Positions 1 to 17,189 of a stretch of 64,000 nt of DNA are shown piece by piece (position 1 is the first letter of the stretch; each line of letters opens with the position of its first letter). The stretch comes from Candidatus Parcubacteria bacterium. GTDB taxonomy: Bacteria > Patescibacteriota > Microgenomatia > UBA12405. The translations under genes and the position numbers were made by a program. Below the pieces are notes generated by a model that had not been told where the DNA came from, made no database searches, and worked only from the letters and a program-made list of their open reading frames with translations. The stretch is taken from the NCBI GenBank assembly GCA_023396915.1, contig JAEWUV010000007.1, positions 146,077 to 210,076 on the forward strand, given 5' to 3'.

Positions 1-573
1 AGATAAACCAACATTAATCAATAATGGAACAATTTTTTTTCGACCGTCACCCGGACCATAAACATTATAAAGATTTAAAGTTACTGCATTGAAATCACAA
101 ACTTGAACATAATATTCAAGGACATCAAAAAAAGATTTTTTCAATGAAGCATATAAATCAACTGGATTATACTTAGAATCTTGTCTATAACTTTCCCAAT
201 AAGTACCAGTAGAAATTATATTTTTAACACCAATCTTTTTCATTGCGTCCAACAACTTCACTCCAAAAACAAAATTCGAATCAATCAATGGAATTAGATC
301 ATCTTTCTTAGGTTCAGCAACAAAACTTCCGGCTAAATGAACCACAACATCAGGCTTAACATCTTCTAAACAATTATAAATATCAAAAGCATCATCATTG
401 TAACGGTAATATTTTACACGTTCCTCTTCAAACAAAATGGGAGAATCTTTCCCTTGCAATAAAAACAAAGAATAATCACTTTCTTTTAGGAGACAATCAA
501 CTAAGTGTCTGCCTATATAACCAGATGCGCCAGTAACTATAACTTTAATCTTTCTTTCAGGTTCTTTAATCAT
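1..573 (-). CDS. NAD-dependent epimerase/dehydratase (N-terminal ~190 aa; gene runs off the window start)
   Basis: Minus-strand ATG at 571-573. Translation MIKEPERKIKVIVTGASGYIGRHLV... has the GxxGxxG Rossmann motif and a YASLK (YxxxK) motif. Open to position 1. Confidence 0.7.
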   Translation of the reverse strand, partial: MIKEPERKIKVIVTGASGYIGRHLVDCLLKESDYSLFLLQGKDSPILFEEERVKYYRYNDDAFDIYNCLEDVKPDVVVHLAGSFVAEPKKDDLIPLIDSNFVFGVKLLDAMKKIGVKNIISTGTYWESYRQDSKYNPVDLYASLKKSFFDVLEYYVQVCDFNAVTLNLYNVYGPGDGRKKIVPLLINVGLS

Positions 574-641: not shown

Positions 642-1481
642 CTACTTAATCGAAAACAATATAAAAAGTTTTCCAAAATAATTTATTATTAATCGTAAAT
701 ATAATAAAAATTGCTCAAAGTTAGAAAGATCATATTCATCTTTATATTTTCTAAAAAGTAGAATATGTTCTTTTAGGGCTTTTTTAAAAAACAAAATAGT
801 TCCCTGACCTTTATGTAAACAAAAACCAAATTGAATATTTCGACAAAAATAACCATTCCCATATTGAAGTATTTTAATCCATAAATCCATATCACTTATA
901 TATTTAAAAGCGCTTTCAAAAAAAAGTTTATTTCTCTTAATAACTGAAGTTCTTAACGTTACTCCAGTTGGTTCACCTAAAGGATTCCTGCCAGATAATA
1001 AAATTTTATTTATCAAAACACCGCCATTAACTTTCTTGCTATATTTATAATGTTTACGAACCATTATTCTCTTGAACTTATTTGTTAAAACATTACTTGA
1101 ACCATAAACCAATACTACATCATCAAATCTATCTAAAATATTAACTTGTTCCAACAAACAATTTTTATATAGAATATCATCTGCACATAATATTTTTAAA
1201 TACTTTCCACTGGCTACCGATAAGCATTTATTCATATTTGGAAACATACCAATATTTTTTTTATTTCTATAAAGATGAATATTATTATATTTTTTTACAA
1301 ATGAATTTATAATTTCAACGCTATTATCAATAGAAGCATTATCAAAAATATAGACATCAAAATCTTTATACGACGAGCTCATTAGTGATTCCAAAGTCCT
1401 AGCTATATATTTTCCAGCATTAAAACAAGGAATACAAACTATTAATTTTTTACTTTTTTTCATTTGTCTTTTCAAGACCAA
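642..1481 (-). CDS. family 2 glycosyltransferase
   Basis: LIVCIPCFNAGKYIARTLESL...DVYIFDNASIDNS is a GT2 N-terminal signature. Confidence 0.75.
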   Translation of the reverse strand: MVLKRQMKKSKKLIVCIPCFNAGKYIARTLESLMSSSYKDFDVYIFDNASIDNSVEIINSFVKKYNNIHLYRNKKNIGMFPNMNKCLSVASGKYLKILCADDILYKNCLLEQVNILDRFDDVVLVYGSSNVLTNKFKRIMVRKHYKYSKKVNGGVLINKILLSGRNPLGEPTGVTLRTSVIKRNKLFFESAFKYISDMDLWIKILQYGNGYFCRNIQFGFCLHKGQGTILFFKKALKEHILLFRKYKDEYDLSNFEQFLLYLRLIINYFGKLFILFSIK

Positions 1482-3477
1482 GTTTAATTAAATAATAAAA
1501 ATGCAAAAGAATAAAAATATTTTTGACTCTTACATCAAACAATGAAAAACCATTTGACAAGTAATAGCAAAACCATAAACCTGCAACCATAAAACATAAA
1601 ACCGATTTTAAAAATAAAACTTTTTCTTTTGAATCTTTATCAACTTCAGTTAAAAGTACCAACATAATAGGAATTGAATATAAAAGACGATAAGCATACA
1701 CACTATTAGGAATTAAATTAATTACGGCACATGACAATATATACAATAATATATATAATTCTCTTTTTTTTAAAACTAAATATGAAAACATCTTGAAAAT
1801 ATTTTTCTTCCTCAAGTGAATAAAGGGTAAAACGAATACAAACAACAACCAAAATTTTGATATAAACGATACTAAACCAAACCGTATCAAACAAGTACCT
1901 TTGTTTACGCAACCAGTAAACAAAGTAGATATTGCCTTTATTGAATGGTTTGATACTAGGTAAAAAGGTTGTGAAAAATTACCATTAGAACCATTGTTAA
2001 ATAACAAAATACCATTCCAAATAGAAAAAATATCAGTACTCACCCCATATAAAACTGGCAAATAAGAAAAGGCTATAAAAGAAAACAAAAAAGACAATAA
2101 TGAAACCAAAACACTTCCAGAAAATAAGATTTCAATAATAGCAAATGGTAATAAAAAAAACTTTACATTACTTATATATCCAACCAAAAAACCAATAAAT
2201 AAAGACCGTAAAATCCTATTTTTTACAGGTATTTTAAGAGAAAAATAAAATAAAAAACCAATTAAAACAAATAAAAATAAATCTAAATTACCCCTCTCTA
2301 CCCCAAAAGCAAAAGGAAGCTGTAAAGAAAAAATTGAAACAAAAAGCAATAACAATAAACGATTTTTACTCTTAACTTTTAAAAAACATATCCAAATAAA
2401 TATTAAAAACAATAAAAAAAATAAAAATAGATACCACTTGTATAAAGTAATATGACAATTTAAAACATCATCAAAACTACAAACTCCATGATTTTTTAAA
2501 ACACTCAATAATGGAGCAAATGTGACTACTATACCAGTACCATAATTAGCAGCACCTTCAACAAAATTTCTTCCATTTAATAAATTATTGGCCGGTAAAA
2601 CTACACCAGTAAACAAATCTCTACCAACGGGAGATAAATAAAACAAAGACTCTGGTGCTTGAATTAAATTTTCAGAATTTCTATAGGAAACAACATACCT
2701 TGACAAGATAGTTAATAAAAGAATTACTAAAAACAAAATCAACGGATCCTTTTTAAGATTATTTTTAAACCACAAAAATATATTTTTGACTAACCAAGAA
2801 AACCAATAAAAAGCTTTCTTAAAAAAGTTAAATATGTTAATAATAAAAATCGAAAAGATAATTGCCAATAAATAATCTCCAATTGACAAAGATTTTAAAA
2901 GAGAAAATAACTTAGAAAATAAAAATATTGGAATTTCACGTTTATTTTGCAACAAATATTCCTTCGAATAACTATACTTACTAAGAAAAGAATTATTGAC
3001 AGCAAGTAGCTGAACTGAATTACCAATAACACCATCTACAGACTCGATTTCAATTACATATTCCTTCCCTTTTGATTTAGTTATCTCTGGAAAACCAAAA
3101 GGGAAATATAAACTATCTTGAAATTTACTTATTTCATAATCATTAACGTAATACCAATCATTACTAATAGATTCTTTAATCTTAAATCTTAGTAAACCAT
3201 GGTTAACTCTATTGTGTATATTAAATCTCATCGAAACTATACCTAATCTATTACTACTAGCTTCAAATCTTAAAACAACTTTTTCTCCTTCTAAAAGTTC
3301 TACGTCTTTAATATCATTAAATTTGTTAACTTGAGTTATTACTGTAGGATTAAATCCAATATAATTACTAAAACTTCTACTTTTTAACATCCCCATTAAT
3401 ACCAACACTAAAACAAAAACAAAAGGGAATAAACAAAACTTTACTTTATTAATATTTCTCATTCTCATACCAATCAT
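1450..3477 (-). CDS. large polytopic membrane protein (putative glycan polymerase / GT-C-like); function unknown
   Basis: 675 aa. N-terminal TM, then a ~150-aa soluble domain, then more than 10 hydrophobic helices. Lies inside a glycan operon. Confidence 0.4.
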   Translation of the reverse strand: MIGMRMRNINKVKFCLFPFVFVLVLVLMGMLKSRSFSNYIGFNPTVITQVNKFNDIKDVELLEGEKVVLRFEASSNRLGIVSMRFNIHNRVNHGLLRFKIKESISNDWYYVNDYEISKFQDSLYFPFGFPEITKSKGKEYVIEIESVDGVIGNSVQLLAVNNSFLSKYSYSKEYLLQNKREIPIFLFSKLFSLLKSLSIGDYLLAIIFSIFIINIFNFFKKAFYWFSWLVKNIFLWFKNNLKKDPLILFLVILLLTILSRYVVSYRNSENLIQAPESLFYLSPVGRDLFTGVVLPANNLLNGRNFVEGAANYGTGIVVTFAPLLSVLKNHGVCSFDDVLNCHITLYKWYLFLFFLLFLIFIWICFLKVKSKNRLLLLLFVSIFSLQLPFAFGVERGNLDLFLFVLIGFLFYFSLKIPVKNRILRSLFIGFLVGYISNVKFFLLPFAIIEILFSGSVLVSLLSFLFSFIAFSYLPVLYGVSTDIFSIWNGILLFNNGSNGNFSQPFYLVSNHSIKAISTLFTGCVNKGTCLIRFGLVSFISKFWLLFVFVLPFIHLRKKNIFKMFSYLVLKKRELYILLYILSCAVINLIPNSVYAYRLLYSIPIMLVLLTEVDKDSKEKVLFLKSVLCFMVAGLWFCYYLSNGFSLFDVRVKNIFILLHFYYLIKLGLEKTNEKK

Positions 3478-4294
3478 ACAAAATTTTTATACATTTTTTT
3501 ATATCTAAAAATTTGAAATCACCCAGTTCTTTTTTTAATCTCTTATTATCGCAAGTATATTCATCATTTAACCCCTCATTTTTTACTACAACCTCTGATT
3601 TTTTTTCTGCCACTTCGTTAATTATTCTAGCTATTGTCAATAAATCTATCTTTTCACCATTTCCAATGTTATAAAACTTATATTTCGCTTCGTGATTAAT
3701 AAAAAAATCAACAATTTTTACAAAATCATCAATATAAACATAAGTAAAATAAACATTTTGACTTATAGTGATTGGTAATCCAGCTAAATTTTGACAAATT
3801 GCATTTGAAATAAACCGATATCGATAATCTTCGTGTTTACCAAATAAACCAAAAATTCTTAAACTAACAATATCGTCCTGTCCTTCAATATATTTTGAAC
3901 AAATATATTTAAAAAATCCATAATCATCAACAGGAATATTTTTATCAAAATCACTTTCCTTTACATCAACAATAGACTTCGATTTATCATATTCCGCCCC
4001 TGATCCTAAATTAATCATTTTTCCAAATTTGTGTTTATTCCTAACAATATTAAAAAACATTCTTAAATTCTGAGACAATGCCGAATCAACTTGTTCTGCA
4101 GCTGTACTACCACCCACTATCGCTGCATGTATTACTACGTCAATTTTATTTTTATTAAAAAAATCATCTACCTTTTTACCATCAGTTAAATCCAATTCCA
4201 ATCTTGTTGGTGCTAAAAAATCATATTCATTTCTAAGTTTCTCATAAATATTTTTTCCTACGAAACCATTAACACCAGTCAACAAAATTTTCAT
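3449..4294 (-). CDS. short NAD(P)-dependent sugar-nucleotide reductase/epimerase (RmlD / CDP-paratose-synthase-like)
   Basis: MKILLTGVNGFVGKNIYEKL Rossmann motif, YICSK (YxxxK), 281 aa. Confidence 0.65.
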   Translation of the reverse strand: MKILLTGVNGFVGKNIYEKLRNEYDFLAPTRLELDLTDGKKVDDFFNKNKIDVVIHAAIVGGSTAAEQVDSALSQNLRMFFNIVRNKHKFGKMINLGSGAEYDKSKSIVDVKESDFDKNIPVDDYGFFKYICSKYIEGQDDIVSLRIFGLFGKHEDYRYRFISNAICQNLAGLPITISQNVYFTYVYIDDFVKIVDFFINHEAKYKFYNIGNGEKIDLLTIARIINEVAEKKSEVVVKNEGLNDEYTCDNKRLKKELGDFKFLDIKKCIKILYDWYENEKY

Positions 4295-4313
4295 ATTAAT
4301 TTAATATCCATTG

Positions 4314-4997
4314 TTATTTTATTGAAAAACCACCATCTATAACCACCACCGAGCCAGTCATATAAGTGTTTTTTTCAGAAACTAAAAACAAAACCAATTG
4401 GGCAATTTCCTCCGGATTAACTAATCTCTTTAAAGGGATATCTTCCTCCAATGCTTTTATCTTTTCTGGTGAATTTCTGGCTGTTACCAATTCAGTGTTG
4501 GTAAAACCAGGACAAACTGAATTTACTAAAATATTATCCTGTGCCAACTCTAAAGCCAAAGCCTTTGTCATTCCATTAATTCCATGCTTTGCAGAACAAT
4601 ACAAAACCTGTTTACCTCTAGCTACCACACCAAAAGCCGAACTTATATTAATAATTCTTCCCCATTTGTTTTTCTTCATATTACCAACAAAAGCTCGAGT
4701 TAATTTAATTGGAGCCAATAAATCTATCTGAAAAGTATCCTTTATATTCTTATCGTCCATCTCTTCAATCCACTGAGGGTAATTAATCCCAGCATTATTA
4801 ATTAATATATCTACTTTCAAACTCTTATTTTTTTTAATATATTGATTAATTGATTTATCATCAGACAAATCTAACTCCTGTCTAGTAGGGGAAATAACAC
4901 AATATTTATTCTCTAACAATAAATCCTTTATAGCCTTACCTATTCCCCTAGAAGCACCTGTAATTAAAACATTCTTCTTTAGATTGTTAATCATCAT
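4314..4997 (-). CDS. SDR-family short-chain dehydrogenase/reductase
   Basis: VLITGASRGIGKAI and NAG motifs, classic SDR, 227 aa. Confidence 0.8.
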   Translation of the reverse strand: MMINNLKKNVLITGASRGIGKAIKDLLLENKYCVISPTRQELDLSDDKSINQYIKKNKSLKVDILINNAGINYPQWIEEMDDKNIKDTFQIDLLAPIKLTRAFVGNMKKNKWGRIINISSAFGVVARGKQVLYCSAKHGINGMTKALALELAQDNILVNSVCPGFTNTELVTARNSPEKIKALEEDIPLKRLVNPEEIAQLVLFLVSEKNTYMTGSVVVIDGGFSIK

Positions 4998-5012
4998 ATC
5001 GTATTTTACATC

Positions 5013-6833
5013 CTATTCTTTGGTACCTCCACTTATGATCATGTTTTCTTTCATTTCCTTTTCTGAAATGAACGGACACATATCTTCAAGTGGAGGAGAA
5101 ATAAACCGGCCACCATCTACCATTTTTGTAGTTAATTTAGGAGTTAAAACTAAATCTCTAACAGTATTAATATCGCAAAGAACAGGGCCATCAAAATTCA
5201 AAACTTGCTTTATTTTCTTAACCATTTCTTGGTGATTATTAATTCTTACAGTCTTAATACCATAAGCCTGTCCTACTTTTACATAATCAGGACAACTAAC
5301 CCCACTGTTAGGATCAGACGCGACATGTCTACCATTAAATAAATTATCTTGGGTATTAACAATTGACCTGTATCCATTATTGCTATAAACAAATAATTTT
5401 ACTGGTAATTTATAATGTTTAATAACCTGTAATTCATGAACACTTAATTGCAAACTTCCATCACCCTCAAAACAAATAACCCTTTTTTTATTATTAGCAA
5501 AACAAGCACCTATCGCCGCCGGTAAACCATAACCCATCTGAGCAGCTCCCAAATTTAAAATTATCCTTTGATTTTTTTTAACTTTAAAAACTTGATAAGA
5601 ACAGTTCATTGGACCAATTCCATTAGACAATACCACAACCTCATTTTCCTTTAAAAAATCACAAACAGTGTTTATAAAACAATATTGATTAACATATTTT
5701 TTATCTTTACAAAAATCTTCGGAAAAGGGTGGATATTTTTCATTAATTTTCGAACAATAATTCAACCACCTCTTTATTTTTAAACTACTATTTTTTACTT
5801 TTTCTTTTAATTGTTTGATCATTTCGTCAATAAAATCTTTAGCGTCAAAATTAATCGGTAAATCCACTGATAAAATCGGTTTATCTAATTCGTTCTTGTC
5901 AATATCAACCATAATCTTATAAGCTTTTCTGGCAAAAGCCTTATAGTTAAAACCTACCGTTAAAATATCCATTCTAGCTCCAACAGAAAGTAAAAAATCA
6001 CTATTTTGAATAATAAAATTTGCTGCCCGTTGCCCCAAAGCATGAGCTCTTCCAAAATAATACGGATTATCATCAGCCACTAAATCATAACCCACATAAC
6101 TTGTTAAAACTGGTATTTTAAGTAACTTTATTAGTTTTAATAATTCTTTACTAGCGCCTGACAAATGAACTCCATTCCCAACATACAAAACCGGCCTTTC
6201 TGATTTTAAAAGTTTATTTATTGTTTTCATTACTAAACTAGACAACTTTTTTTTATCAATAGAAAAATCTAAATTGATTTCACTTTCTTTAAACTCCTTA
6301 AAATTCTTCTCATCAACCAAAGCCCCTTGAATATCCAACGGTATATCTAACCAAACTGGGCCTTGTCTTCCATGAGTTGCTAAAAACAAAGCTTTGTCTA
6401 AATGATATTTAATCTCATTAGGGTCCATCACTGTTACTGCATATTTTGTAATTGGTTTAACTAAATCAACTATATTAATTTCTTGTGGACCTAATTGTCT
6501 CATCCCTCCAATTTTAGCCCCCATTAATTCTCTTTTAACTTGACCAGAAATCATTAAAACCGGAATAGAATCCAACCAACTTCCCATCACTCCCGTAATC
6601 GCATTTGTTCCACCAGGACCAGTAGTAACCAAACCAACACCAAATCCACTTAAGCGCGAATATCCTTCAGCAGCGGTAGACACTGCTTCTTCGTGGTGAC
6701 AACAAACATAATTAATATTACTTCTACCCAAAGAATCAACTAAATGTATATTTCCACCACCAGACAAAAGAAAAACATCCTTTATTCCTTTAGTATTTAA
6801 ATACTTAAAGACAAAATCGCTAAGTTTTATCAC
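5013..6833 (-). CDS. thiamine-pyrophosphate-dependent enzyme, acetolactate-synthase large-subunit-like (YerE-like sugar branching enzyme candidate)
   Basis: N-terminal TPP pyrimidine-binding region (LVTTGPGGTNAITGVMGSWLDSIPVLMISGQV) and C-terminal GDGS...NN TPP-binding motif. 606 aa. Confidence 0.8.
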   Translation of the reverse strand: MIKLSDFVFKYLNTKGIKDVFLLSGGGNIHLVDSLGRSNINYVCCHHEEAVSTAAEGYSRLSGFGVGLVTTGPGGTNAITGVMGSWLDSIPVLMISGQVKRELMGAKIGGMRQLGPQEINIVDLVKPITKYAVTVMDPNEIKYHLDKALFLATHGRQGPVWLDIPLDIQGALVDEKNFKEFKESEINLDFSIDKKKLSSLVMKTINKLLKSERPVLYVGNGVHLSGASKELLKLIKLLKIPVLTSYVGYDLVADDNPYYFGRAHALGQRAANFIIQNSDFLLSVGARMDILTVGFNYKAFARKAYKIMVDIDKNELDKPILSVDLPINFDAKDFIDEMIKQLKEKVKNSSLKIKRWLNYCSKINEKYPPFSEDFCKDKKYVNQYCFINTVCDFLKENEVVVLSNGIGPMNCSYQVFKVKKNQRIILNLGAAQMGYGLPAAIGACFANNKKRVICFEGDGSLQLSVHELQVIKHYKLPVKLFVYSNNGYRSIVNTQDNLFNGRHVASDPNSGVSCPDYVKVGQAYGIKTVRINNHQEMVKKIKQVLNFDGPVLCDINTVRDLVLTPKLTTKMVDGGRFISPPLEDMCPFISEKEMKENMIISGGTKE

Positions 6834-6835
6834 TA

Positions 6836-7891
6836 CTATTCCTTATTATTAAAATAAACTAAATAATCTTCTATATCTTTTTTAAATTCTTTGTTAAATT
6901 TTAATCTAACAACACTTATTTTACCAATCCCTTCACATAAAATAGCATCCACTTCGTCTCCAATGACTTTCTTGTCTGTTTTTAAAAATTTCATATATAA
7001 GTCGATATTATCAACTGGAAACGTTTTAAAAGATATAAATTTTTTAATAAAAAGATGAATCCTTAAAAATTCATCTTTTAGTAAAATTCCTCTTTTCATT
7101 GAAATAAAATTAGCTAAATCTATCCCCATTAAAACAGCTAAACCATGAGGGATTTTATTTTTTGTATAGCCTTCTAATGCATGTCCAAAAGTATGACCAT
7201 AATTAAGTAATTTTCTTATATTTTTTTCTAATTCATCTTTCTCAACAATTTCCTTCTTTATAAGCAAACTCTTATAAACTACATCTTCAGTTACTTTACT
7301 ATTCTTTTCCAAATCAGAATAAAACACTCCTCCTTTAATTAATGCGTGTTTTATTATCTCTCCAATACCATTAATTGAATCGACTTCAGACAAAGTATTT
7401 AAAAAACTTATATTTATATATATTTCTATAGGAGGATGAAAAGAACCAACTTGATTTTTAAAACCGCCTATATTGATTCCAGATTTAGCCCCAATACAAC
7501 TATCCACCATAGAAAGAAGTGTAGTGGGAACAAAAACCCAATCAATCCCTCGTTTTATTATATGTGAAGTAAAAGATCCAATATCTTGAACTAAGCCACC
7601 TCCAATTACAACAACTTTATCTTGTTTTTGAATCCCGTTATCCAATAAAAAATAAACATACTTGTTAACTTCATTTAAGGTTTTATTTTTTTCAACCGCT
7701 TCAAAATAATTAACCGATTTAGCCAACGAAACTCCTAATTTCAAATTATCCTTATAAAGATTCCAAATATTTTTATCTATTAAAAAATGACAACGATATT
7801 TTTTAACCAACTCGTTGGTTAAATTATTTAAATTTTTAATAAAAATAACTTCATAATCTTTAATACTAGATTTTATTTTTATATTTCTCAT
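6836..7891 (-). CDS. 3-dehydroquinate-synthase-like sugar phosphate cyclase family protein
   Basis: VVVIGGGLVQDIGSF...PTTLLSMVDSCIGAKSGIN...GSFHPP...HGHTFGHALE aligns to AroB core motifs. Confidence 0.75.
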   Translation of the reverse strand: MRNIKIKSSIKDYEVIFIKNLNNLTNELVKKYRCHFLIDKNIWNLYKDNLKLGVSLAKSVNYFEAVEKNKTLNEVNKYVYFLLDNGIQKQDKVVVIGGGLVQDIGSFTSHIIKRGIDWVFVPTTLLSMVDSCIGAKSGINIGGFKNQVGSFHPPIEIYINISFLNTLSEVDSINGIGEIIKHALIKGGVFYSDLEKNSKVTEDVVYKSLLIKKEIVEKDELEKNIRKLLNYGHTFGHALEGYTKNKIPHGLAVLMGIDLANFISMKRGILLKDEFLRIHLFIKKFISFKTFPVDNIDLYMKFLKTDKKVIGDEVDAILCEGIGKISVVRLKFNKEFKKDIEDYLVYFNNKE

Positions 7892-8820
7892 TTTTTAATT
7901 AAATAATTTATAGCTTCATAAACCGCACCTACTGGAGATTTTTTTATTTCCAAAACATACGGAGGTGCATACACATTCGATTTTATAATATTACCATCAT
8001 TAGTGAAACTATAAGGATAGCTTAATAATCCCTTATTATTATCATTAGGAGAATCTCCAAAAGTAGCTAATTGATTATCTTTTATTTTTAATTTCTTAAC
8101 TAAATTTTTCATCATATACAATTTCCCATCAACAATCTTTCCATTAATTCTTAAGTTTCTACCCACATCAGCAAATGGTAAATTTCCCCAAGAAACACAT
8201 AAATCATAAGGGGTCAACTTTCTTCTCAACACATTAATGATTTTCTTTTGTTCATTAATATCTGACGGTAAGACAAAAGTAACCTTAACAGCTTCAGCAA
8301 AAACACAACCCTTAGAATTACAAGAAATCTTGTAACAAGTCTCTGGCATTAAATCCTTTGGAGGTTTATTTTTCAAAAATTCATTAAAAAAAATTTTTGA
8401 TTTTAGGTCTGGTTCAACCTTTAACTTCTTGTAAACATCAAACGTTTTTTTTAATAAAGATTTATCAAAACTATTAGAATATATTTTTTTAACAAACACT
8501 TTTTTAGGAGTAAAAGTTAATCTATTTAAAACTGCTCCTGTTCCGCCAGACCGCCAAACAGTAAAAGAACAGTCGTTCTTCATACAAAATATCAAACCCA
8601 ACTCTCTAAGTTTAATGTCTAAAGTGGTGTTTCTTCCTGATACAAAAGCAAAATCTATTCCACTCTGAAACACACGAAAAGCCAACTCAATCACATTATC
8701 TAGTGAATTATAAGTTTTATCATTCCTATCATACACTGTTCCATCATAATCAACCGCAATTAATTTTACACCTCCACACTTTACTTCTTCTAATTTTTGC
8801 CACACTAAACTATTTTTCAT
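7888..8820 (-). CDS. HAD-superfamily (IIB, Cof-like) phosphatase
   Basis: KLIAVDYDGTV (DxDGT motif I), FVSGR, FGDSPND (motif IV). Confidence 0.7.
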   Translation of the reverse strand: MKNSLVWQKLEEVKCGGVKLIAVDYDGTVYDRNDKTYNSLDNVIELAFRVFQSGIDFAFVSGRNTTLDIKLRELGLIFCMKNDCSFTVWRSGGTGAVLNRLTFTPKKVFVKKIYSNSFDKSLLKKTFDVYKKLKVEPDLKSKIFFNEFLKNKPPKDLMPETCYKISCNSKGCVFAEAVKVTFVLPSDINEQKKIINVLRRKLTPYDLCVSWGNLPFADVGRNLRINGKIVDGKLYMMKNLVKKLKIKDNQLATFGDSPNDNNKGLLSYPYSFTNDGNIIKSNVYAPPYVLEIKKSPVGAVYEAINYLIKK

Positions 8821-9401
8821 TTACCTAATTTTAAATCATTTAAATTTTTTAAAATAAATTTAAGACAATCTGAATTTTCCGTATCCACTTCTACAACTGG
8901 CCAAAAATCTATCTTTTCAAAAAAACTTTCTGCCCATCTTAATTGTTTCAAGGTAGTTATATTTGAAAAACTACCTTCCTTTTTTCTTTTATTCAATCTT
9001 TTAACAATTTCATTATCTCCCGGCTTTTTTAAATAAAATATTCTTAAAGGTATCTTATACTTAAGCAAATAATCCTTTAAGACAACCAATGGCGCCTTAA
9101 ATTCTTTCCTTGAAAACGTAGCCGGTAACAAAACTGATTCACCTGAAGAAACCATATACCAAGCCTTAGAACAAAAATAAGCATAAACCGCAGCCATTAT
9201 AGGAAATTCTTCACTTTCAGTTAATAATTTAGGAGTCTCTCCATTGCATCTGTTTGGATCGATTAAGGTTCTAATTCTGTCCAACTCTAAAATCTCAAAG
9301 TTTGACACGCTTTTAATTTTCTTAGCCAAATAATCCTTTCCTCTCAAGGGGGAGCCATATACAACAACCACACAGGGTTTATATTTATGTTTTTTTACCA
9401 T
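8817..9401 (-). CDS. P-loop kinase-like protein (divergent Walker A GSPLRGKD)
   Basis: VVVVYGSPLRGKDYLAKKI looks like a P-loop at the N-terminus, 194 aa. Translationally coupled to the HAD and DHQS-like genes. Confidence 0.4.
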   Translation of the reverse strand: MVKKHKYKPCVVVVYGSPLRGKDYLAKKIKSVSNFEILELDRIRTLIDPNRCNGETPKLLTESEEFPIMAAVYAYFCSKAWYMVSSGESVLLPATFSRKEFKAPLVVLKDYLLKYKIPLRIFYLKKPGDNEIVKRLNKRKKEGSFSNITTLKQLRWAESFFEKIDFWPVVEVDTENSDCLKFILKNLNDLKLGK

Positions 9402-9456
9402 ATTTGCCTACAAAAGTCATTATAACAAACTAGTTGGTATTATTATTTTTTAATTT

Positions 9457-10650
9457 ATGATACAATCATCCTATAATAATTACAACGTTATGAACAATAA
9501 TTCAATTTTCGATGATCTTTTCGTTTTAGAATTAGCCAATAACCATTGGGGAGACGTAAATAGAGGACTAAAAATTATCAGTGACTTTTCTAAAATTGTT
9601 AGATTTAATAATGTACGTGCTGCTATAAAATTTCAATTTCGCGATGTTGATAACTTTATTCACCCAGATTATATAAATAGAACTGATGTTCGATATATAG
9701 GCAAAACACTAGCCACTAAACTATCAGATCAAAATCTCGATATCCTAGTAAAAGCTTGTAAAAAAAGTGGTTGTATTACTATGGCCACACCTTTCGACGA
9801 AAGATCAGTTGATCTTTGTACCGAATTAAATATTGAAATAATAAAAATTGCTAGTTCTGATATTAATGATTGGGTTTTAATTGAAAAAATCGCCACTACT
9901 AAAAAACCAGTGGCTATGTCTACAGGAGGATCATCTTTAAAAGATATAGATGATTTAGTAAAATTCTTCGAAAATCGCAATATTCCATTAGCTATTAATC
10001 ATTGCGTATCTATTTATCCATCAGAAGATAACGAACTTGAATTAAACCAAATTGATTTTCTTAAAAACAGGTATCCTGACCACGTAATCGGGCTATCTAG
10101 CCATGAATACCATGATTGGGATTCATCAATAACGATTGCCTATGCCAAAGGTGCTAGGACTTTTGAAAGACATATAGACATAAGCACTGAAGATAAAACA
10201 GTTAGTCCATACTGTTCCTTACCACACCAAATAGACAAATGGTTCAAAGCTTTTCATAAAGCCAGAGAAATGTGTGGTGGTAGCGCAGATACAAAAAGAG
10301 TCCCTCCAAAAAAAGAAATTGATTATTTAGACCAATTAGTCAGAGGTGTCTATGCCAAAGAAGACCTACCAATAGGACATGTATTATCTGATGCAGATAT
10401 ATTTTTAGCAATTCCTTTACTTAAAGGTCAAATTTCTTGTCGAGAACTTATGTCTGGAGAAGTTCTCATCAAGCCAGTTGAAAAAAATAAACCAATTTTT
10501 ATTGATATGATAGATAGCCCATACGCTTACAATGAAGAACTTAAAAAAACAATATATGAAAGAGGAATAGATATGACTCCACCCGCAGAGACAGAAACAC
10601 CAAAAGAAAGTACTAATCAAACTCAACCAATCTTCAACAATCCTAAATAA
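9457..10650 (+). CDS. NeuB-family PEP-dependent aldolase (sialic/pseudaminic/legionaminic acid synthase-like) with C-terminal SAF domain
   Basis: LELANNHWGD, IKFQF, MATPFDERSVDL...IIKIASSDINDW, CVSIYPS, IGLSSHE and TFERHID all align with NeuB motifs. Confidence 0.8.
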   Translation: MIQSSYNNYNVMNNNSIFDDLFVLELANNHWGDVNRGLKIISDFSKIVRFNNVRAAIKFQFRDVDNFIHPDYINRTDVRYIGKTLATKLSDQNLDILVKACKKSGCITMATPFDERSVDLCTELNIEIIKIASSDINDWVLIEKIATTKKPVAMSTGGSSLKDIDDLVKFFENRNIPLAINHCVSIYPSEDNELELNQIDFLKNRYPDHVIGLSSHEYHDWDSSITIAYAKGARTFERHIDISTEDKTVSPYCSLPHQIDKWFKAFHKAREMCGGSADTKRVPPKKEIDYLDQLVRGVYAKEDLPIGHVLSDADIFLAIPLLKGQISCRELMSGEVLIKPVEKNKPIFIDMIDSPYAYNEELKKTIYERGIDMTPPAETETPKESTNQTQPIFNNPK

Positions 10651-11614
10651 TTTTTTTGTACCAATCAAAAATACCTTTAGAAGTTTTTGATATTAAACTT
10701 TCATTTTTCCACCCAATCTTTTTTATTTTGTCATAATTTAATGATTGGTAGGGGATTTCGTTTTTAGCAATATTTAAAACTTTATAAGGAACTTTTTTAC
10801 CCAAAGCTTTTTCAATTTCTTTTATTAAATCTATTACCGACAAAGTATCATTTGATCCAAAATTAAAAGCTTCACCTTTTACTTCATCAATTTTTTCGGC
10901 CAACATCAAATAACCTTTCACCACATCTTTGACATATAAATAATCACGCACTGCTTTACCATCGCTTCTCAACTCTAAAGTTTCATTTTTAAGTAAAGAC
11001 ATCATAATTCCTGGAATAATCCGAGAAAAATTATTATCACCTTCACCATAAATATTTCCAAATCGAGTAATAACCACTGGTACTTGGTAAGTTTTAAAAT
11101 ACATTCTCGAAATCAAATCAGTCGCCGATTTTGACACATCATAAGGATGATCACCTTTTACCGGGTCTGTTTCTATATACTGTCCCGAAGCTAATTTACC
11201 ATAAGCTTTATCTGACGATGCCACTACAACTGCTTTTATTTTTGGATAAAGCCTGGCGCTTTCCAATATATTTGTTGTCCCCATCACATTCGACTTTATG
11301 GTTTTTAACGGATTAGCATAAGCTGTAGTCACTATTGCCTGAGCCGCCAAATGGAAAATATAATCAATTTCAAATTTCGTTACTAAATCCATCACTCCAT
11401 CAAAATCAGCTATATCTACCTGTGCCATAACAACTTTTTTATCAAATCCTTTCACCATAAAATAAGACAAAGGATCGGTGTATTCAAAAGTAGTTACAAC
11501 ATTAGCCCTCTGATTGATTAATTCCTCAACTAAATGAGATCCAACAAAACCAGTTCCACCCGTCACTAAAACATTTTTTCCTGCAAATTTATTTTTTATT
11601 TCCATATTTTCCAA
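10643..11614 (-). CDS. rfbG: NDP-hexose 4,6-dehydratase, CDP-glucose 4,6-dehydratase-like
   Basis: VLVTGGTGFVGSHL, FHLAAQ, TNVMGT, SSDKAYG, YDVSK. Lies adjacent to rfbF. Confidence 0.65.
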   Translation of the reverse strand: MENMEIKNKFAGKNVLVTGGTGFVGSHLVEELINQRANVVTTFEYTDPLSYFMVKGFDKKVVMAQVDIADFDGVMDLVTKFEIDYIFHLAAQAIVTTAYANPLKTIKSNVMGTTNILESARLYPKIKAVVVASSDKAYGKLASGQYIETDPVKGDHPYDVSKSATDLISRMYFKTYQVPVVITRFGNIYGEGDNNFSRIIPGIMMSLLKNETLELRSDGKAVRDYLYVKDVVKGYLMLAEKIDEVKGEAFNFGSNDTLSVIDLIKEIEKALGKKVPYKVLNIAKNEIPYQSLNYDKIKKIGWKNESLISKTSKGIFDWYKKII

Positions 11615-12375
11615 GGTGGATTAGATTCACTCCACCAAGTGTTTAAATCCTTTAATTCCTTATTAGTATCCATACAAGCCCAAAAACCATCATGGTTATA
11701 CAATGAAAGCTGTTTTTCTTTGGCCAATCTTTGCAATGCTGGATGCTCTGTTTCACCAGGTCTTAAATATTTAAAAAATTCTCTATTAAACACCATATAT
11801 CCACCGTTAACCCAATCGTTCATTACTGGTTTTTCAGTAAACTCTTTAACCTTATTTTTCGAATCAACTAAAACAACACCAAATTTAGAAATCGGATGTA
11901 TTCCGGTTATTGTCCCTATTGTTTTTTGTCTTTTGTGAAATTCTAATAATTTTTTTATATTAATATCACTCACACCATCTCCGTAAGTCACCATAAAACT
12001 TTCATCTTCTTTTGGAATATATTTTTTACATTTTAAAATTCTTTCGCCTGGCATAGTTTCTAAACCCGTATCCACAAAAGTAATTTTAAAATCATCAACT
12101 TCTTCTCTGTTTTCCATATGGTACTCACATTCAAAATCTTTTGTATTTAAAGTAAAATCAGAAGTCAAAGCCTTTTGGTTCAAAAAGAAAGTTTTTATAT
12201 AGTCACCTTTGTAACCCAAAGCCAAAATAAACTCATTAAATCCGTAAAACGAATACATTTTCATGATATGCCACAAAATTGGCTTATTACCCACATATAC
12301 CATTGGCTTTGGTTTAAATTCCGTTTCTTCTCGCAACCTAGTTCCTTGACCACCACAAAGAATAATAACTTTCAT
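11596..12375 (-). CDS. rfbF: glucose-1-phosphate cytidylyltransferase
   Basis: MKVIILCGGQGTRLREETEFKPKPMVYVGNKPILWHIMKMYSFYG is nearly diagnostic of RfbF. Confidence 0.85.
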   Translation of the reverse strand: MKVIILCGGQGTRLREETEFKPKPMVYVGNKPILWHIMKMYSFYGFNEFILALGYKGDYIKTFFLNQKALTSDFTLNTKDFECEYHMENREEVDDFKITFVDTGLETMPGERILKCKKYIPKEDESFMVTYGDGVSDINIKKLLEFHKRQKTIGTITGIHPISKFGVVLVDSKNKVKEFTEKPVMNDWVNGGYMVFNREFFKYLRPGETEHPALQRLAKEKQLSLYNHDGFWACMDTNKELKDLNTWWSESNPPWKIWK

Positions 12376-12415: not shown

Positions 12416-13648
12416 TTGCAAATGTTTAATTTTAAATATTACTTCAAAAAACAAGTTATCGATTTTCAAAAATATGGTTGGGCTGGAGTATTTACCAAAA
12501 TCAAAAATAGACTTATATACCCAATTTTAAAAATTAGGATAAAAAAAATTCTAAAAACAGCCAAAAACTATCATCGTAAATCCATACTCATCGTCAATGG
12601 TGCCGAAAAATCTGTTTCTGAAATTCACCGAGTAAAACATTTAGAAGACAAACTTAAAATATTAAACATTCCTTTTTTATCCTTAACTGATAATTTACTT
12701 AATCGTTTTACTCCAAGAAATATTAATAAATTTAATTTACTTTATATTCATCGATGCCCTTACAAAAATAACATTATTACATTAATTAACGATTTTAAAA
12801 ATCAACACAAACTGGTTATCTATGATATTGACGATCTAATTTTTGACAAAGACCAACTTAAAAAAATAAGTTTTCTTAAAAACATGAACTCACGATTTTG
12901 CCATCAATTTATTCAAAATACCGACGTTCATTTAAAAATTATGAAGAGGTGTGATTTTACAATCACACCAACTAAATTTCTTTCTCAATACATCAACAAA
13001 AAATATAAAATCCATACCAAAGTTTTACGTAACCACTTGGATCAAAGCAGTCTAGACAAAGGCCGAAAAATTTACCAAGCTCAAAAACAATCTCAAAATA
13101 AAAATATAACCATCGGCTATTTTTCCGGTACTAAAACTCATGACAAAGATTTTCAAATTATTCAACCTTCACTTCAAAAACTTTTGACTCAAAACCCAAA
13201 TTTAAATCTAAAAATAGTCGGTATCTTAGATATAAATTCAAGTCTTAACAAATTCAAAAATCAAATAATCACCCACAAAAAAGTTCCTTATAAAAGATTA
13301 ATGAACTTGTATAAAGGTGTTGATATCAATATCGCCCCTTTAGAAATAAATAATGATTTTTGTGAAAGCAAAAGTGAATTAAAATATTTCTTTGCCGCCG
13401 CTTGTGGTATTCCTACCGTCGCTTCTGCCACCGACGCTTTTAAACACGCTATCAAACAAGGAGAGAACGGTTACCTTTGTAAAAATTCATCCGATTGGTA
13501 TCAATATTTAAATCGACTTATTCAAAATAAAAAAGAAAGATTAGTTATGGGTAAAAAAGCCTTTATCCAAACCAAACAAGAATATTCACCCAAATATCAA
13601 GCTAAACAACTTAAAAAGATACTAGAAGAAGTAAAATTTTATGACTAA
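12416..13648 (+). CDS. GT-B fold glycosyltransferase (GT4-like C-terminal domain)
   Basis: C-terminal ESKSELKYFFAAACGIPTVASATDAFKHAIKQGENGYLC resembles the GT4 E-x7-E region. Divergent from rfbF with a 40-bp spacer. Confidence 0.6.
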   Translation: MQMFNFKYYFKKQVIDFQKYGWAGVFTKIKNRLIYPILKIRIKKILKTAKNYHRKSILIVNGAEKSVSEIHRVKHLEDKLKILNIPFLSLTDNLLNRFTPRNINKFNLLYIHRCPYKNNIITLINDFKNQHKLVIYDIDDLIFDKDQLKKISFLKNMNSRFCHQFIQNTDVHLKIMKRCDFTITPTKFLSQYINKKYKIHTKVLRNHLDQSSLDKGRKIYQAQKQSQNKNITIGYFSGTKTHDKDFQIIQPSLQKLLTQNPNLNLKIVGILDINSSLNKFKNQIITHKKVPYKRLMNLYKGVDINIAPLEINNDFCESKSELKYFFAAACGIPTVASATDAFKHAIKQGENGYLCKNSSDWYQYLNRLIQNKKERLVMGKKAFIQTKQEYSPKYQAKQLKKILEEVKFYD

Positions 13649-16123: not shown

Positions 16124-16125
16124 AA

Positions 16126-17184: not shown

Positions 17185-17189
17185 CCATT

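Follow-up and report, generated by a model that had tools for sequence, protein, structure and literature searches.

Given that CDP-sugar genes, a cyclase-like gene and a PEP-dependent aldolase gene lie together in this locus, the question arises which sugar they build and what the cyclase-like enzyme contributes to it. The window (the whole 64-kb stretch of DNA that was analyzed) comes from a Candidate Phyla Radiation bacterium resembling Roizmanbacteria. The nine genes considered here were confirmed at the coordinates given in the sequence-only reading, their family assignments were largely upheld by profile searches, and they sit within a glycan island of about 50 kb. Most likely, the genes build a CDP-linked deoxy-sugar with a long side chain, of the yersiniose/caryophyllose kind. 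In the fuller proposal, this part of a surface-glycan island is its sugar-building core and makes a CDP-activated C4-acyl-branched (3,)6-deoxyhexose by a scheme with a terminally deoxygenated donor; we regard this as somewhat more probable than improbable, and the predicted product class is that of yersiniose, erwiniose, caryophyllose and gastriose. The unusual part of the locus is an AroB-like enzyme, which probably modifies the sugar side chain.

Homology and conserved context show which acceptor would be made. The RfbF/DdhA-like glucose-1-phosphate cytidylyltransferase (259 aa; 11596..12375, minus strand; TIGR02623, PF00483) matched TIGR02623 over its full length with 271 bits (cut-off 300), and homologues from other phyla (38-66% identity) are part of the same cassette; its predicted product is CDP-glucose. 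Its gene overlaps by 19 nt that of an RfbG/DdhB-like CDP-glucose 4,6-dehydratase-like extended SDR (323 aa; 10643..11614, minus strand), for which the top NCBIfam model was TIGR02622 (196 bits, cut-off 278), followed by dTDP-glucose dehydratase (172 bits), and whose translation shows the SSDK and YxxxK motifs. Together, the two enzymes would yield CDP-4-keto-6-deoxyglucose, the product expected of the dehydratase. A weak point of the pathway is that the cytidylyltransferase, the dehydratase and the AroB-like protein each score under the curated equivalog cut-offs. The sequence-only reading had described the E1 dehydrase, the E3 reductase and any aminotransferase as absent. The contig does carry an RfbH/DdhC (E1) gene some 3.2 kb outside the left end of the window, and its product scored above the equivalog cut-off of NF011936 (611 bits, cut-off 423). 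The absence of E1 thus holds inside the window and not for the locus, and the statement that the DegT family is missing fails at the locus level because of the same gene; no E3 reductase was seen at the locus, as had been noted. RfbH would take away the 3-OH of the acceptor.

The side chain would be attached by a YerE-like ThDP-dependent carboligase (606 aa; 5013..6833, minus strand) with three ThDP-enzyme Pfam domains. Among solved structures, its best relative is JanthE (8rph; 404 bits), a characterised YerE-like lyase (PMC12188165), whereas the best true AHAS reached 242 bits; across many phyla, its homologues co-occur with RfbF, RfbG-like and RfbH genes. These scores and this gene company support the earlier suggestion of a CDP-6-deoxyhexose core with a YerE-type branching enzyme, which is predicted to decarboxylate a 2-oxo acid and to couple the resulting acyl anion with the CDP-4-keto sugar at its C4. 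A reading as acetolactate synthase (ilvB) is not supported, since JanthE is the best relative, all acetolactate-synthase equivalog models scored far under cut-off (368 vs 538), and the scan of ORFs over the 64 kb turned up neither ilvN nor ilvC; a bona fide ilvB with ilvN and ilvC appears to be absent from these ORFs.

From conserved gene partnerships, we infer the donor branch that would provide this 2-oxo acid. The NeuB-family PEP-dependent aldolase (397 aa; 9457..10650, plus strand; PF03102, 140 bits) reached only 118 bits with the PseI and NeuB equivalog models, far under their cut-offs; its best solved relative is 3g8r, a protein of unknown function (208 bits), compared with at most 84 bits for true NeuB. 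It belongs to a distinct, highly conserved subfamily with 56-81% identity across phyla. Forty-two independently sampled metagenome loci, each 9 kb or longer, were collected around this subfamily; a GtrB-like GT2 gene was present in 31/42, a 4,6-dehydratase gene in 29/42, a cytidylyltransferase gene in 23/42 and RfbH in 19/42. With a YerE-like gene adjacent in 38 of the 42 loci, the NeuB-like protein is the aldolase with which the ThDP enzyme is paired and no add-on, a point missed by the sequence-only reading. It would condense an aldose with PEP and so supply a 3-deoxy-2-ulosonic acid, that is, a polyhydroxylated 2-oxo acid, as the donor.

A second sample of 80 genomes or loci was built on the AroB-like protein. 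A YerE-like gene was present in 31 of these, and 29 of the 31 carried exactly one of three unrelated aldolases, namely NeuB-like (9), HpcH/citrate-lyase type (11) or HMGL/BphI type (9), indicating that a single step, the formation of the 2-oxo acid, has undergone non-orthologous replacement. A search with the HpcH-type aldolase returned no named mycobacterial protein. In the published scheme for acyl-branched sugars, an aldolase makes a 2-oxo acid that passes to a YerE-like enzyme and then a reductase, ErwI being BphI-like and MMAR_2331 aldolase/citrate-lyase-like (PMC9306805); the layout of our locus agrees with this order. Only 3 of the 42 loci sampled around the NeuB-like gene had an AroB-like gene, which makes the latter an optional add-on. 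Identity to the NeuB-like protein of the window is 56-81% both in loci that have the AroB-like gene and in loci that lack it, so its presence probably leaves the aldolase reaction unchanged.

The HAD-IIB (Cof-type) phosphatase (310 aa; 7888..8820, minus strand) matched PF08282 with 26.5 bits, above the cut-off, and TIGR01484 with 31 bits, and carries the motifs DYDGT (DxDGT) and GDSPND (GDxxND). A homologue with 53% identity keeps this position in the close relative L088, which has HAD, AroB-like and ThDP genes and, as a point against our scheme, no kinase gene on the recovered contig. Because 17 sampled loci have a HAD-IA gene next to the NeuB-like gene, and a HAD-IIB homologue (31% identical) adjoins the NeuB-like gene of L087, where there is no AroB-like gene, the HAD gene is tied to the NeuB-like gene and not to the cyclase. 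Our guess is that it would release the free aldose for the NeuB-like enzyme, as drawn in our scheme, or dephosphorylate an intermediate.

The cyclase-like gene encodes an AroB-related sugar-phosphate phospholyase (351 aa; 6836..7891, minus strand) of the uncharacterised TIGR04425 family. TIGR04425 was its best model (342 bits, cut-off 400), ahead of aroB (253 bits, cut-off 305), and all 25 aligned relatives, as a group, scored far better with TIGR04425 than with aroB. Among solved structures, it was closer to DHQS (163 bits) than to EEVS (90), DDGS (83) or DOIS (82). In our own residue mapping, 13 of 13 DHQS active-site residues are kept, with unchanged spacing, and do not vary within the family; they include all metal and phosphate ligands and the carboxylate binders Lys212 and Arg226. 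These residues point to a DAHP-like acid or 3-deoxy-ulosonate phosphate as the substrate rather than sedoheptulose 7-phosphate. With DHQS-type residues kept, a HAD gene linked to the NeuB-like gene, and a gluconate/shikimate-kinase-like P-loop protein where acarbose and validamycin clusters use another type, a cyclitol kinase, the suggested likeness to such C7-cyclitol clusters is unsupported. Synthesis of aromatic amino acids is likewise not supported, as the protein is under the aroB cut-off and no shikimate-pathway gene was seen in the ORFs scanned over the 64 kb, where a complete pathway appears to be absent. Nothing at the locus points to either process.

The AroB-like enzyme is usually accompanied by a classical FabG-like SDR (227 aa; 4314..4997, minus strand; PF13561, PF00106). 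Homologues of this SDR lie no more than 8-10 kb from the AroB-like gene in at least 64 of the 80 loci, usually as the upstream neighbor, with a median distance of 22 bp for those within 8 kb. The putative P-loop (gluconate/shikimate-kinase-like) small-molecule kinase (194 aa; 8817..9401, minus strand) alone showed a weak AAA_33 resemblance (E 0.0056) and no match in the PDB. Full HMMER found 128 relatives, and a profile of 46 of them matched P-loop small-molecule kinases, with adenylate-kinase-like domains at 2e-12 and with the putative kinase 2rhm and the gluconate kinase 1knq over the full length; AAA_33 was matched by 44 of the 46 members, and the Walker A motif is GSPLRGKD. FGGY kinase genes were present in 13/31 ThDP-type AroB-like loci vs 0/49 other AroB-like loci, and, by aldolase type, in 6/9 NeuB-like, 6/9 HMGL-type and 0/11 HpcH-type loci. 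This distribution fits a kinase that readies the aldolase product, itself unphosphorylated, for the AroB-like enzyme, and we propose that the P-loop kinase fills the position of the FGGY kinase here.

The ulosonate donor would be tailored, we infer, by an optional module that is present here and consists of the kinase, the AroB-like enzyme and the SDR. The kinase would phosphorylate the terminal hydroxyl of the ulosonate; the AroB-like enzyme, by DHQS-type NAD+/metal chemistry, would transiently oxidize it and then eliminate the phosphate by beta-elimination; and the SDR would reduce the ketone left behind. The chemistry judged likeliest is a terminal deoxygenation in which phosphate is eliminated, and we favor a terminally deoxygenated 2-oxo acid with its 2-oxo group retained as the net product. 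No link was found, however, between the AroB-like gene and M. marinum, R. palustris or B. caryophylli, whose branched sugars are terminally deoxygenated and have known structures. It is also possible that the AroB-like enzyme cyclises its substrate to a true carbocycle, which would be DHQ-like rather than valienol-like: to our knowledge, every characterised member of the DHQS/sugar-phosphate-cyclase superfamily cyclises, and the NCBI name of TIGR04425 carries the label "(cyclizing)". In classical mechanistic work on DHQS, the DAHP-derived enol-pyranose cyclises spontaneously, so a C7 substrate would give a carbocycle and the 2-oxo group needed by the ThDP enzyme would be destroyed. Against this, AroB-like genes occur in two genomic contexts, ThDP coupling and CMP activation by NeuA/KdsB-like enzymes, and both require an intact 2-oxo acid. 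Of the branched or carbocyclic surface sugar first suggested, the branched part is supported by the YerE-like enzyme and its partner genes; an acarbose-type carbocycle is not, and a DHQ-like one is possible.

After coupling, the branch carbonyl would be reduced and the sugar exported. An RmlD/GDP-fucose-synthase-like extended SDR (281 aa; 3449..4294, minus strand; PF01370 96 bits, PF04321 51 bits) has homologues (38-62% identity) adjoining the YerE-like gene in ten loci (L004, L006, L012, L046, L068, L072, L078, L087, L088 and L098), and is a candidate for reducing the branch carbonyl, as YerF does, or for tailoring the 4- or 5-position. Its gene overlaps by 29 nt that of a strongly hydrophobic polytopic membrane protein (675 aa; 1450..3477, minus strand; no Pfam match), which in turn overlaps by 32 nt the gene of a GT2 glycosyltransferase (279 aa; 642..1481, minus strand; PF00535 on record). 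In many related loci, a GtrB-like GT2 is followed by a large membrane protein, and such a pair would transfer the sugar to the glycan via a polyprenyl-phosphate carrier; the 675-aa protein is a candidate for the GT-C-like transferase that would act outside the cytoplasm on the lipid-linked branched sugar.

The 4-nt overlaps between the kinase and HAD genes and between the HAD and AroB-like genes, and the 2-nt gap between the AroB-like and ThDP genes, are compatible with the translational coupling proposed earlier. The NeuB-like gene does overlap convergently, by 8 nt with the dehydratase gene; it is also divergent from the kinase gene across a 55-nt spacer, so the minus-strand genes form two units and it does not stand at the 3' end of a single operon. 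Nor do the limits of 3449-12375 hold, as the unit extends past both ends with glycosyltransferases, the 675-aa membrane protein and an off-window GtrB-like GT2. The window's left edge cuts an NAD-dependent epimerase/dehydratase (308 aa; N-terminal part only, 1..573, minus strand), and beyond it the contig (L084) carries this GT2, UDP-galactopyranose mutase, RfbH and a 590-aa GT87-like membrane protein. With the GT2 family found after the YerE-like/aldolase pair at other loci, the off-window GT2 shares 38% identity. On the other side, a GT1/GT4-type (410 aa) and a GT2 (328 aa) glycosyltransferase (12416..14627, plus strand; families taken from the contig's Pfam record) are divergent from the cytidylyltransferase gene.

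All nine ORFs that the sequence-only reading had listed for the locus at 3449-12375 were present at their coordinates, and its observation was largely confirmed. Eight of them lie on the minus strand, and the 4-nt overlaps and very short gaps between the genes fit translational coupling. The gene for the NeuB-family protein (9457-10650, plus strand; PF03102, 140 bits) is convergent to the dehydratase gene (8-nt overlap) and divergent from the kinase gene (55-nt spacer). Because of this arrangement, the minus-strand genes make up two units, not the single operon with the NeuB-like gene at its 3' end that had been described. The window has a G+C content of about 30%, and the best named relatives of its proteins belong to Candidatus Roizmanbacteria and other Candidate Phyla Radiation (CPR) bacteria; identical proteins were found on metagenome contigs of up to ~0.9 Mb. 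An Rfam scan of the window returned no non-coding RNA.

The ThDP enzyme of the locus (606 aa; 5013-6833) carries three ThDP-enzyme Pfam domains. Among solved structures its best match was JanthE (8rph), with 404 bits over residues 2-599, compared with 242 bits for the best acetohydroxyacid synthase (AHAS). JanthE has been characterised as a YerE-like lyase; it joins 2-oxo acids to ketones (PMC12188165). The acetolactate-synthase equivalog models all scored far under their cut-off (368 vs 538 bits). Judged by homology, the enzyme is YerE-like and distinct from AHAS, which supports the earlier proposal of a YerE-type branching enzyme in a CDP-sugar pathway. In the closest CPR-like relatives, two YerE-like paralogues were observed per locus (L087, 1444-3222 and 7210-9018; L088, 29-1531 and 4766-6580), with ~41% and 52-66% identity to the ThDP protein of the window, which suggests two different branched sugars or two coupling steps.

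These scores also bear on a housekeeping explanation, in which a genuine AroB of the shikimate pathway and a genuine IlvB of branched-chain amino acid synthesis would lie by chance among sugar genes. The aroB model does give 253 bits and the acetolactate-synthase model 368 bits, but both values are under the curated cut-offs (305 and 538), and TIGR04425 is a better match to the AroB-like protein, as JanthE is to the ThDP enzyme; genuine AroB or IlvB was rejected on these scores. Apart from the AroB-like gene itself, the scanned window ORFs and the genes on record for the 10 kb to the left include no shikimate gene, nor do they include ilvN or ilvC. The neighbourhood is moreover conserved over many phyla, including organisms with an aroB of their own, and one homologous locus (L026) contains a second copy. 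CPR bacteria are generally without amino-acid biosynthesis, which also speaks against this explanation. We consider it highly improbable.

The acceptor genes consist of an RfbF-like glucose-1-P cytidylyltransferase (11596-12375; TIGR02623, 271 bits, cut-off 300) and an RfbG-like SDR resembling CDP-glucose 4,6-dehydratase (10643-11614; TIGR02622, 196 bits, cut-off 278), each under its equivalog cut-off, together with an RfbH gene outside the window. To the left of the window the contig continues with the remainder of a 308-aa epimerase/dehydratase gene, after which come genes for a GtrB-like GT2, a UDP-galactopyranose mutase, a 419-aa DegT-family protein and lastly a 590-aa membrane protein. 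The 419-aa protein, encoded 3.2 kb beyond the left edge, scored 611 bits on the RfbH equivalog model (cut-off 423). RfbH is the CDP-6-deoxy-4-keto-glucose 3-dehydrase (E1). Both E1 and E3 had been reported absent, which no longer holds for E1; neither the scanned window ORFs nor the left flank yielded an E3-type reductase. Given that RfbH is encoded on the same contig, the acceptor is probably CDP-4-keto-3,6-dideoxyglucose, the same as in the yersiniose pathway. The second gene downstream of the ThDP gene encodes a candidate YerF-type reductase, the 281-aa extended SDR (3449-4294; PF01370, 96 bits), whose homologues are repeatedly encoded beside YerE-like genes elsewhere.

Clusters for acyl-branched sugars include those for yersiniose A, erwiniose, caryophyllose and gastriose (Steitz et al. 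2022, PMC9306805; review PMC12247030). In the experimentally supported unifying scheme of Steitz et al., an aldolase yields a hydroxylated 2-oxo acid, a YerE-like enzyme (ErwE, MMAR_2332, MyGE) decarboxylates this acid and couples it to a CDP-keto sugar, and a YerF-like reductase completes the branch (PMC9306805). The published aldolases include the BphI-like ErwI and the aldolase/citrate-lyase-like MMAR_2331, and the scheme leaves open the origin of the terminal methyl in caryophyllose-type side chains (PMC9306805). A 2025 review (PMC12247030) cites more than 200 such clusters from an in-silico study, most of them without a known product. Like these clusters, the present locus unites genes for RfbF-like, RfbG-like and RfbH proteins, a YerE-like carboligase, a predicted 2-oxo-acid aldolase, a candidate NAD(P)H reductase and glycosyltransferases. 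Unlike the published clusters, in which the aldolase, where its type is stated, is BphI-like (ErwI) or aldolase/citrate-lyase-like (MMAR_2331), it has a PEP-dependent NeuB-family aldolase, no E3 was found here, and it belongs to a CPR bacterium. The locus also contains inserted genes that do not figure in the published scheme, for a kinase, a HAD phosphatase, a DHQS-like enzyme and a second SDR. The literature searches gave no account of either a NeuB-type aldolase or a DHQS-like gene in a branched-sugar context.

The NeuB-like subfamily is highly conserved, with 56-81% identity across phyla. Its closest solved relative is 3g8r (208 bits), true NeuB giving at most 84 bits. Considering its NeuB-family domain and weak C-terminal SAF-domain match, the enzyme presumably converts PEP and an aldose to a 3-deoxy-2-ulosonic acid. 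It resembles the NeuB, PseI and LegI synthases and the Neu5Ac-9-P/KDN-9-P synthase-phosphatase pairs in the NeuB-family domain and in frequent pairing with a HAD phosphatase; unlike NeuB, PseI and LegI, it reaches only 118 bits on the PseI and NeuB models (cut-offs 340-400), and its partner is a ThDP enzyme, with no NeuA-type CMP-transferase. Structure 3g8r was deposited as a 'probable spore coat polysaccharide biosynthesis protein E' without an assigned function, and the gene context described here suggests a function for this orphan structure.

Eighty NeuB-like loci were sampled, and partner genes were counted in the 42 metagenome loci of at least 9 kb. A YerE-like gene was adjacent in 38 of the 42, followed in frequency by a GtrB-like GT2 gene (31), a 4,6-dehydratase (29), a cytidylyltransferase (23) and RfbH (19); the AroB-like gene and an FGGY kinase gene were found in three and two, respectively. 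By these partner counts, the core module is made up of cytidylyltransferase, dehydratase, E1, reductase, YerE-like enzyme, NeuB-like aldolase and GT2. The AroB-like gene with its SDR and the kinase gene form an optional addition to it, present in the window and in its closest relatives (L088, L089, L098 and L004-L006). An aldolase to supply the ThDP enzyme is thus present at the locus as a NeuB-family protein of predicted activity, in a pairing kept in those 38 independent loci. Of the 80 sampled loci, 17 carry a HAD-IA gene of ~222 aa near the NeuB-like gene. Another 17 of the 80 have a gene for an FkbM-like methyltransferase of ~387 aa near the NeuB-like/YerE-like pair (L093, L094, L102, L106, L107, L110 and L113 among them), a possible sign that the side chains are methylated, which has been proposed for the sugar of R. 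palustris.

The AroB-like protein (6836-7891, minus strand) has the fold of DHQS and the other sugar-phosphate cyclases (EEVS, EVS, DDGS and DOIS) and contains the domains PF01761 and PF24621. Its best family is TIGR04425 (342 bits, cut-off 400), ahead of the aroB model TIGR01357 (253 bits, cut-off 305), and all 25 aligned relatives match TIGR04425 (best E 3e-133, vs 1e-85 for aroB). Residues R114, D130, K136, N146, E178, K181, K212, R226, N230, H233, H237, H249 and K307/308 are invariant in the 25 relatives and align to solved DHQS; by spacing, we take them to be R130, D146, K152, N162, E194, K197, K250, R264, N268, H271, H275, H287 and K356 of A. nidulans DHQS. By this mapping, the ligands of NAD+, metal, phosphate and carboxylate are the same as in DHQS and identically spaced. 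In DHQS the substrate carboxylate is bound by K250 and R264, and both residues are replaced in EEVS-type cyclases. Since the carboxylate binders of DHQS type are kept, the substrate of the AroB-like enzyme is predicted to be a 3-deoxy-2-ulosonate phosphate. The A. nidulans numbering used here is reportedly that of Carpenter et al. from 1998. Unlike DHQS, the protein has its best match in a separate family, scores under the aroB cut-off and shows invariant residues particular to that family (Gln102 in GGGLVQD, Trp118, Cys132, Tyr231). In every case its gene is surrounded by glycan or sugar-acid genes and an SDR gene, and in none by shikimate genes.

The sequence-only reading had likened the locus to cyclitol clusters of the acarbose/validamycin type. 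The C7-cyclitol pathways of acarbose and validamycin use EEVS, cyclitol kinases, the HAD phosphatase AcbJ and an NDP-valienol synthase. On paper the likeness includes a cyclase-like enzyme, a kinase, a HAD phosphatase, a nucleotidyltransferase and an NDP-glucose 4,6-dehydratase. Unlike in those pathways, however, the active-site residues are of DHQS type and not EEVS type, the kinase is from another fold family, the nucleotidyltransferase is RfbF-like, and the HAD and kinase genes are tied to the aldolase step in the comparative data. Against solved structures the AroB-like protein gave 163 bits for DHQS and 90 bits for EEVS (4p53), it resembles none of EEVS, DDGS and DOIS, and the six families that it matched include no model of these three. 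No pseudoglycosyltransferase, aminotransferase or NDP-cyclitol synthase partner was found in the scanned ORFs or the left flank, where the only DegT-family gene nearby is the RfbH-type 3-dehydrase. EEVS/valienol-type chemistry was rejected on active site and scores, and the likeness was not upheld. Of the earlier interpretation, the YerE/branched-sugar half was supported and the cyclitol half was not.

A genome scan with the AroB-like protein yielded 80 loci with 32-56% identity, most of them spread over many bacterial phyla and a few archaeal, and its neighbours in these 80 genomes are sugar genes. An SDR homologous to the FabG-like SDR of the locus (227 aa; 4314-4997, minus strand; PF13561, 156 bits) lies within 8-10 kb of the AroB-like gene in at least 64 of the 80 loci (75 by clustering; median distance 22 bp) and is usually its immediate upstream neighbour. 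The loci fall into two sets without common partner genes, 31 with a YerE-like gene and 49 others. In 29 of the 31, exactly one of three unrelated aldolases is present, NeuB-like (9), HpcH/citrate-lyase type (11) or HMGL/BphI type (9), so that the three types are interchangeable here. RfbF, dehydratase, RfbH and GtrB-like GT2 genes are often present in the 31 loci. ErwI and MMAR_2331 appear, by type, to match two of these three. A search with the HpcH-type aldolase (family of 6164 clusters) gave no named mycobacterial protein among the 120 matches listed. The 49 others have NeuA-/KdsB-like cytidylyltransferases, GmhA-like SIS proteins, Gfo/Idh/MocA proteins, D-2-hydroxyacid dehydrogenases, HpcH aldolases, YhcH and Maf-like (DUF115) proteins. 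A 'Cyclase'-family protein is also usual in this second cassette, which was seen in Bacteroidota, Desulfobacterota, Verrucomicrobiota, SAR86, Pelagibacterales and other groups (loci L008, L014-L018, L021, L023, L027-L034, L037-L058 and others) and looks like an uncharacterised CMP-activated sugar-acid pathway.

Another explanation is that two unrelated pathways share the locus. A plain yersiniose-type C2-branched sugar would be made by the cytidylyltransferase, dehydratase, E1, ThDP enzyme with pyruvate and reductase. The NeuB-like enzyme, kinase, phosphatase, AroB-like enzyme and SDR would build a separate sugar of ulosonic-acid type, and each sugar would be incorporated on its own. Such mixing is common in glycan islands, and this one has more than 20 glycosyltransferase genes; the AroB-like/SDR pair occurs without a ThDP enzyme in 49 of 80 loci, and YerE itself favours pyruvate (PMC12247030). 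However, the locus has no second, NeuA/KdsB-like nucleotidyltransferase for activation of an ulosonic acid, and neither does any of the 31 ThDP-type loci. The adjacency of NeuB-like and ThDP genes in 38 of 42 loci and the presence of one of three alternative aldolases in 29 of 31 further weaken this explanation, because genes that simply shared a glycan island would be expected to associate much less closely. We regard it as quite unlikely.

The 194-aa protein (8817-9401, minus strand; AAA_33, E 0.0056) had two relatives in a word-indexed search and no match in a direct PDB search, and its single-sequence AlphaFold model was unusable (mean pLDDT 41). Its assignment therefore depends on a full HMMER search, which yielded 128 relatives, and on the family profile, which matches adenylate-kinase-like domains, a putative kinase, gluconate kinase (full length) and shikimate kinase; AAA_33 was matched by 44 of 46 family members. 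On this basis we class the protein as a P-loop small-molecule kinase. It occupies the slot of the FGGY kinase of other loci, which is found in 13 of the 31 ThDP-type AroB-like loci and none of the 49 others, and by aldolase type in 6 of 9 NeuB-like, 6 of 9 HMGL-type and none of 11 HpcH-type loci. Likewise, the HAD-IIB gene of the window (7888-8820; PF08282, 26.5 bits, above the cut-off) stands in for the HAD-IA gene of other loci, which adjoins the FGGY kinase gene in several ThDP-type loci. A role of the HAD and kinase as a GmhB/HddA-like or AcbJ/AcbU-like pair before nucleotide activation was rejected, since the HpcH-type AroB-like loci have neither and HAD genes also lie beside NeuB-like genes where no AroB-like gene is present. 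In L089, which also has an FGGY/AroB-like/NeuB-like set, a second, more distant NeuB-like gene (44% identity) was seen beside a homologue of the window kinase (35% identity; 0-1984); the P-loop kinase may therefore be tied to the NeuB-like product and not to the AroB-like enzyme itself.

Taken together, the locus is, by homology and gene context, a variant of the acyl-branched sugar pathway with a widespread DHQS-like/SDR module, and we give the model of a CDP-linked acyl-branched deoxy-sugar somewhat better than an even chance. For the acceptor, CDP-glucose would be converted to CDP-4-keto-6-deoxyglucose and, via E1, to the 3,6-dideoxy form. For the donor, the HAD enzyme would release an aldose, from which the NeuB-like enzyme would form the ulosonate with PEP. 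In the add-on, the kinase may phosphorylate the chain end, and the AroB-like enzyme may then oxidise, eliminate phosphate and re-reduce, leaving a ketone for the SDR to reduce. The YerE-like enzyme would join donor and acceptor, the 281-aa SDR would reduce the branch carbonyl, and the GtrB-like GT2 and a large membrane protein, either the 675-aa protein at 1450-3477 or the off-window 590-aa protein, would install the sugar via a lipid carrier. The acceptor and coupling steps rest on homology and strongly conserved context, and the donor, add-on and export steps are what we infer from the gene set.

A carbocyclic product, which is the earlier proposal in amended form, would alter this scheme. 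The NeuB-like enzyme and the kinase would then provide a DAHP-like ulosonate phosphate, which the AroB-like enzyme would cyclise to a dehydroquinate-like acid for reduction by the SDR, the ThDP enzyme using pyruvate as YerE does; a carba-sugar-like unit would enter the glycan as a separate residue or serve as ketone acceptor of the ThDP enzyme. All 13 catalytic and binding residues of DHQS, the closest solved family, are kept by mapping. To our knowledge, every characterised member of the DHQS/sugar-phosphate-cyclase superfamily is a cyclase, and the enol-pyranose derived from DAHP cyclises spontaneously, as reported in classical DHQS work. The NCBI name of TIGR04425, a family of putative AroB-related sugar phosphate phospholyases, also carries "(cyclizing)". 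Reduction of a cyclitol ketone by an SDR has precedent in shikimate/quinate and valienol-type pathways, and in its non-ThDP context the AroB-like gene is accompanied by Gfo/Idh/MocA proteins whose best NCBIfam match is inositol dehydrogenase. Cyclisation, however, uses up the 2-oxo group, and yet in 31 loci the gene lies between those of an aldolase and of a ThDP enzyme that uses 2-oxo acids, and in the remaining loci it lies beside CMP-ulosonate-type cytidylyltransferases. The compact loci L077, L035 and L046 lack an enzyme able to activate or attach a free carbocyclic acid, and no pseudoglycosyltransferase or GlgC-type nucleotidyltransferase is present among the genes classified. In addition, the NeuB-like/ThDP adjacency holds in loci without the AroB-like gene, and the aldolase product would therefore normally feed the ThDP enzyme. 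As an account of the whole locus, we consider the carbocyclic pathway possible but doubtful.

A non-cyclising tailoring role of the AroB-like enzyme has, in our estimate, a little under an even chance, because in both genomic contexts the next step, ThDP decarboxylation or CMP activation, requires the 2-oxo acid to be intact, NeuB-like and ThDP genes remain paired without the AroB-like gene, compact loci hold nothing able to use a free carbocyclic acid, and terminal deoxygenation would account for methyl-terminated side chains of caryophyllose type. A carbocyclic product of this enzyme, favoured by the cyclase record of the superfamily, the spontaneous cyclisation and the family name, is rather improbable. 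If TIGR04425 were nevertheless a true cyclase, then, together with the NeuB-like aldolase and the kinase, it would give access to a dehydroquinate-like carbocyclic acid independently of DAHP synthase. Surface glycans of CPR bacteria and of many other phyla would then contain this carbocycle, or a derivative branched by the ThDP enzyme, as a carba-sugar residue, which we think unlikely. Carbocycles in polysaccharides are, as far as we know, limited to a few examples, caryose and bradyrhizose among them, for which we know of no established biosynthetic route. No literature was found that links TIGR04425 or DHQS-like genes to O-antigen, flagellin-glycosylation or branched-sugar clusters, or that joins caryophyllose with dehydroquinate.

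Although branched sugars of the YerE type are known from bacterial surfaces, they have been little explored. To their pathways the locus adds a NeuB-family PEP-dependent aldolase, which appears to supply the side-chain donor commonly, was found chiefly in soil and peat metagenomes and is not described in any report found, and a widespread uncharacterised two-gene module of DHQS-like enzyme and SDR. This module would plug both into branched-sugar pathways and into a separate, apparently uncharacterised CMP-sugar-acid pathway linked to Maf-like transferases. It would represent either a new non-cyclising reaction in a superfamily so far known for cyclases only or the origin of carbocyclic glycan sugars; should it remove the oxygen at the chain end, this would account for the terminal methyls of side chains of caryophyllose type. 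YerE-like enzymes are also wanted as biocatalysts for chiral tertiary alcohols.

The locus forms part of a glycan-synthesis island of ~50 kb (600-51000), the length that this small-genome CPR bacterium devotes to glycans, with this elaborate sugar included. Besides its glycosyltransferase genes, the island contains nucleotide-sugar enzymes, two hexapeptide acyltransferases, a UDP-glucose dehydrogenase (28139-29458), MetK (31900-33045), a gene with a weak Wzy_C match below the cut-off (41084-42511), a mannose-1-P guanylyltransferase-like gene (47380-48474) and a priming sugar transferase (Bac_transf) gene (48471-49112); purine, tRNA-synthetase and cell-wall genes lie beyond it. To the left of the window on the same contig (L084, 17025-19992), an ABC transporter pair of ATPase and ABC2 membrane protein was observed past the sugar genes, followed by a Fic/RhuM-like gene, and this pair may export the glycan. 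Within the island, an AAA_14/DUF4143 ATPase gene (14828-16123) is followed by short glycosyltransferase ORFs of GT1 type (177 aa; 16651-17184) and GT8 type (204 aa; 17565-18179), and an additional 79-aa GT8 fragment was called on the contig in the same stretch (14828-18179); these ORFs look truncated or split and may be remnants of rearrangement.
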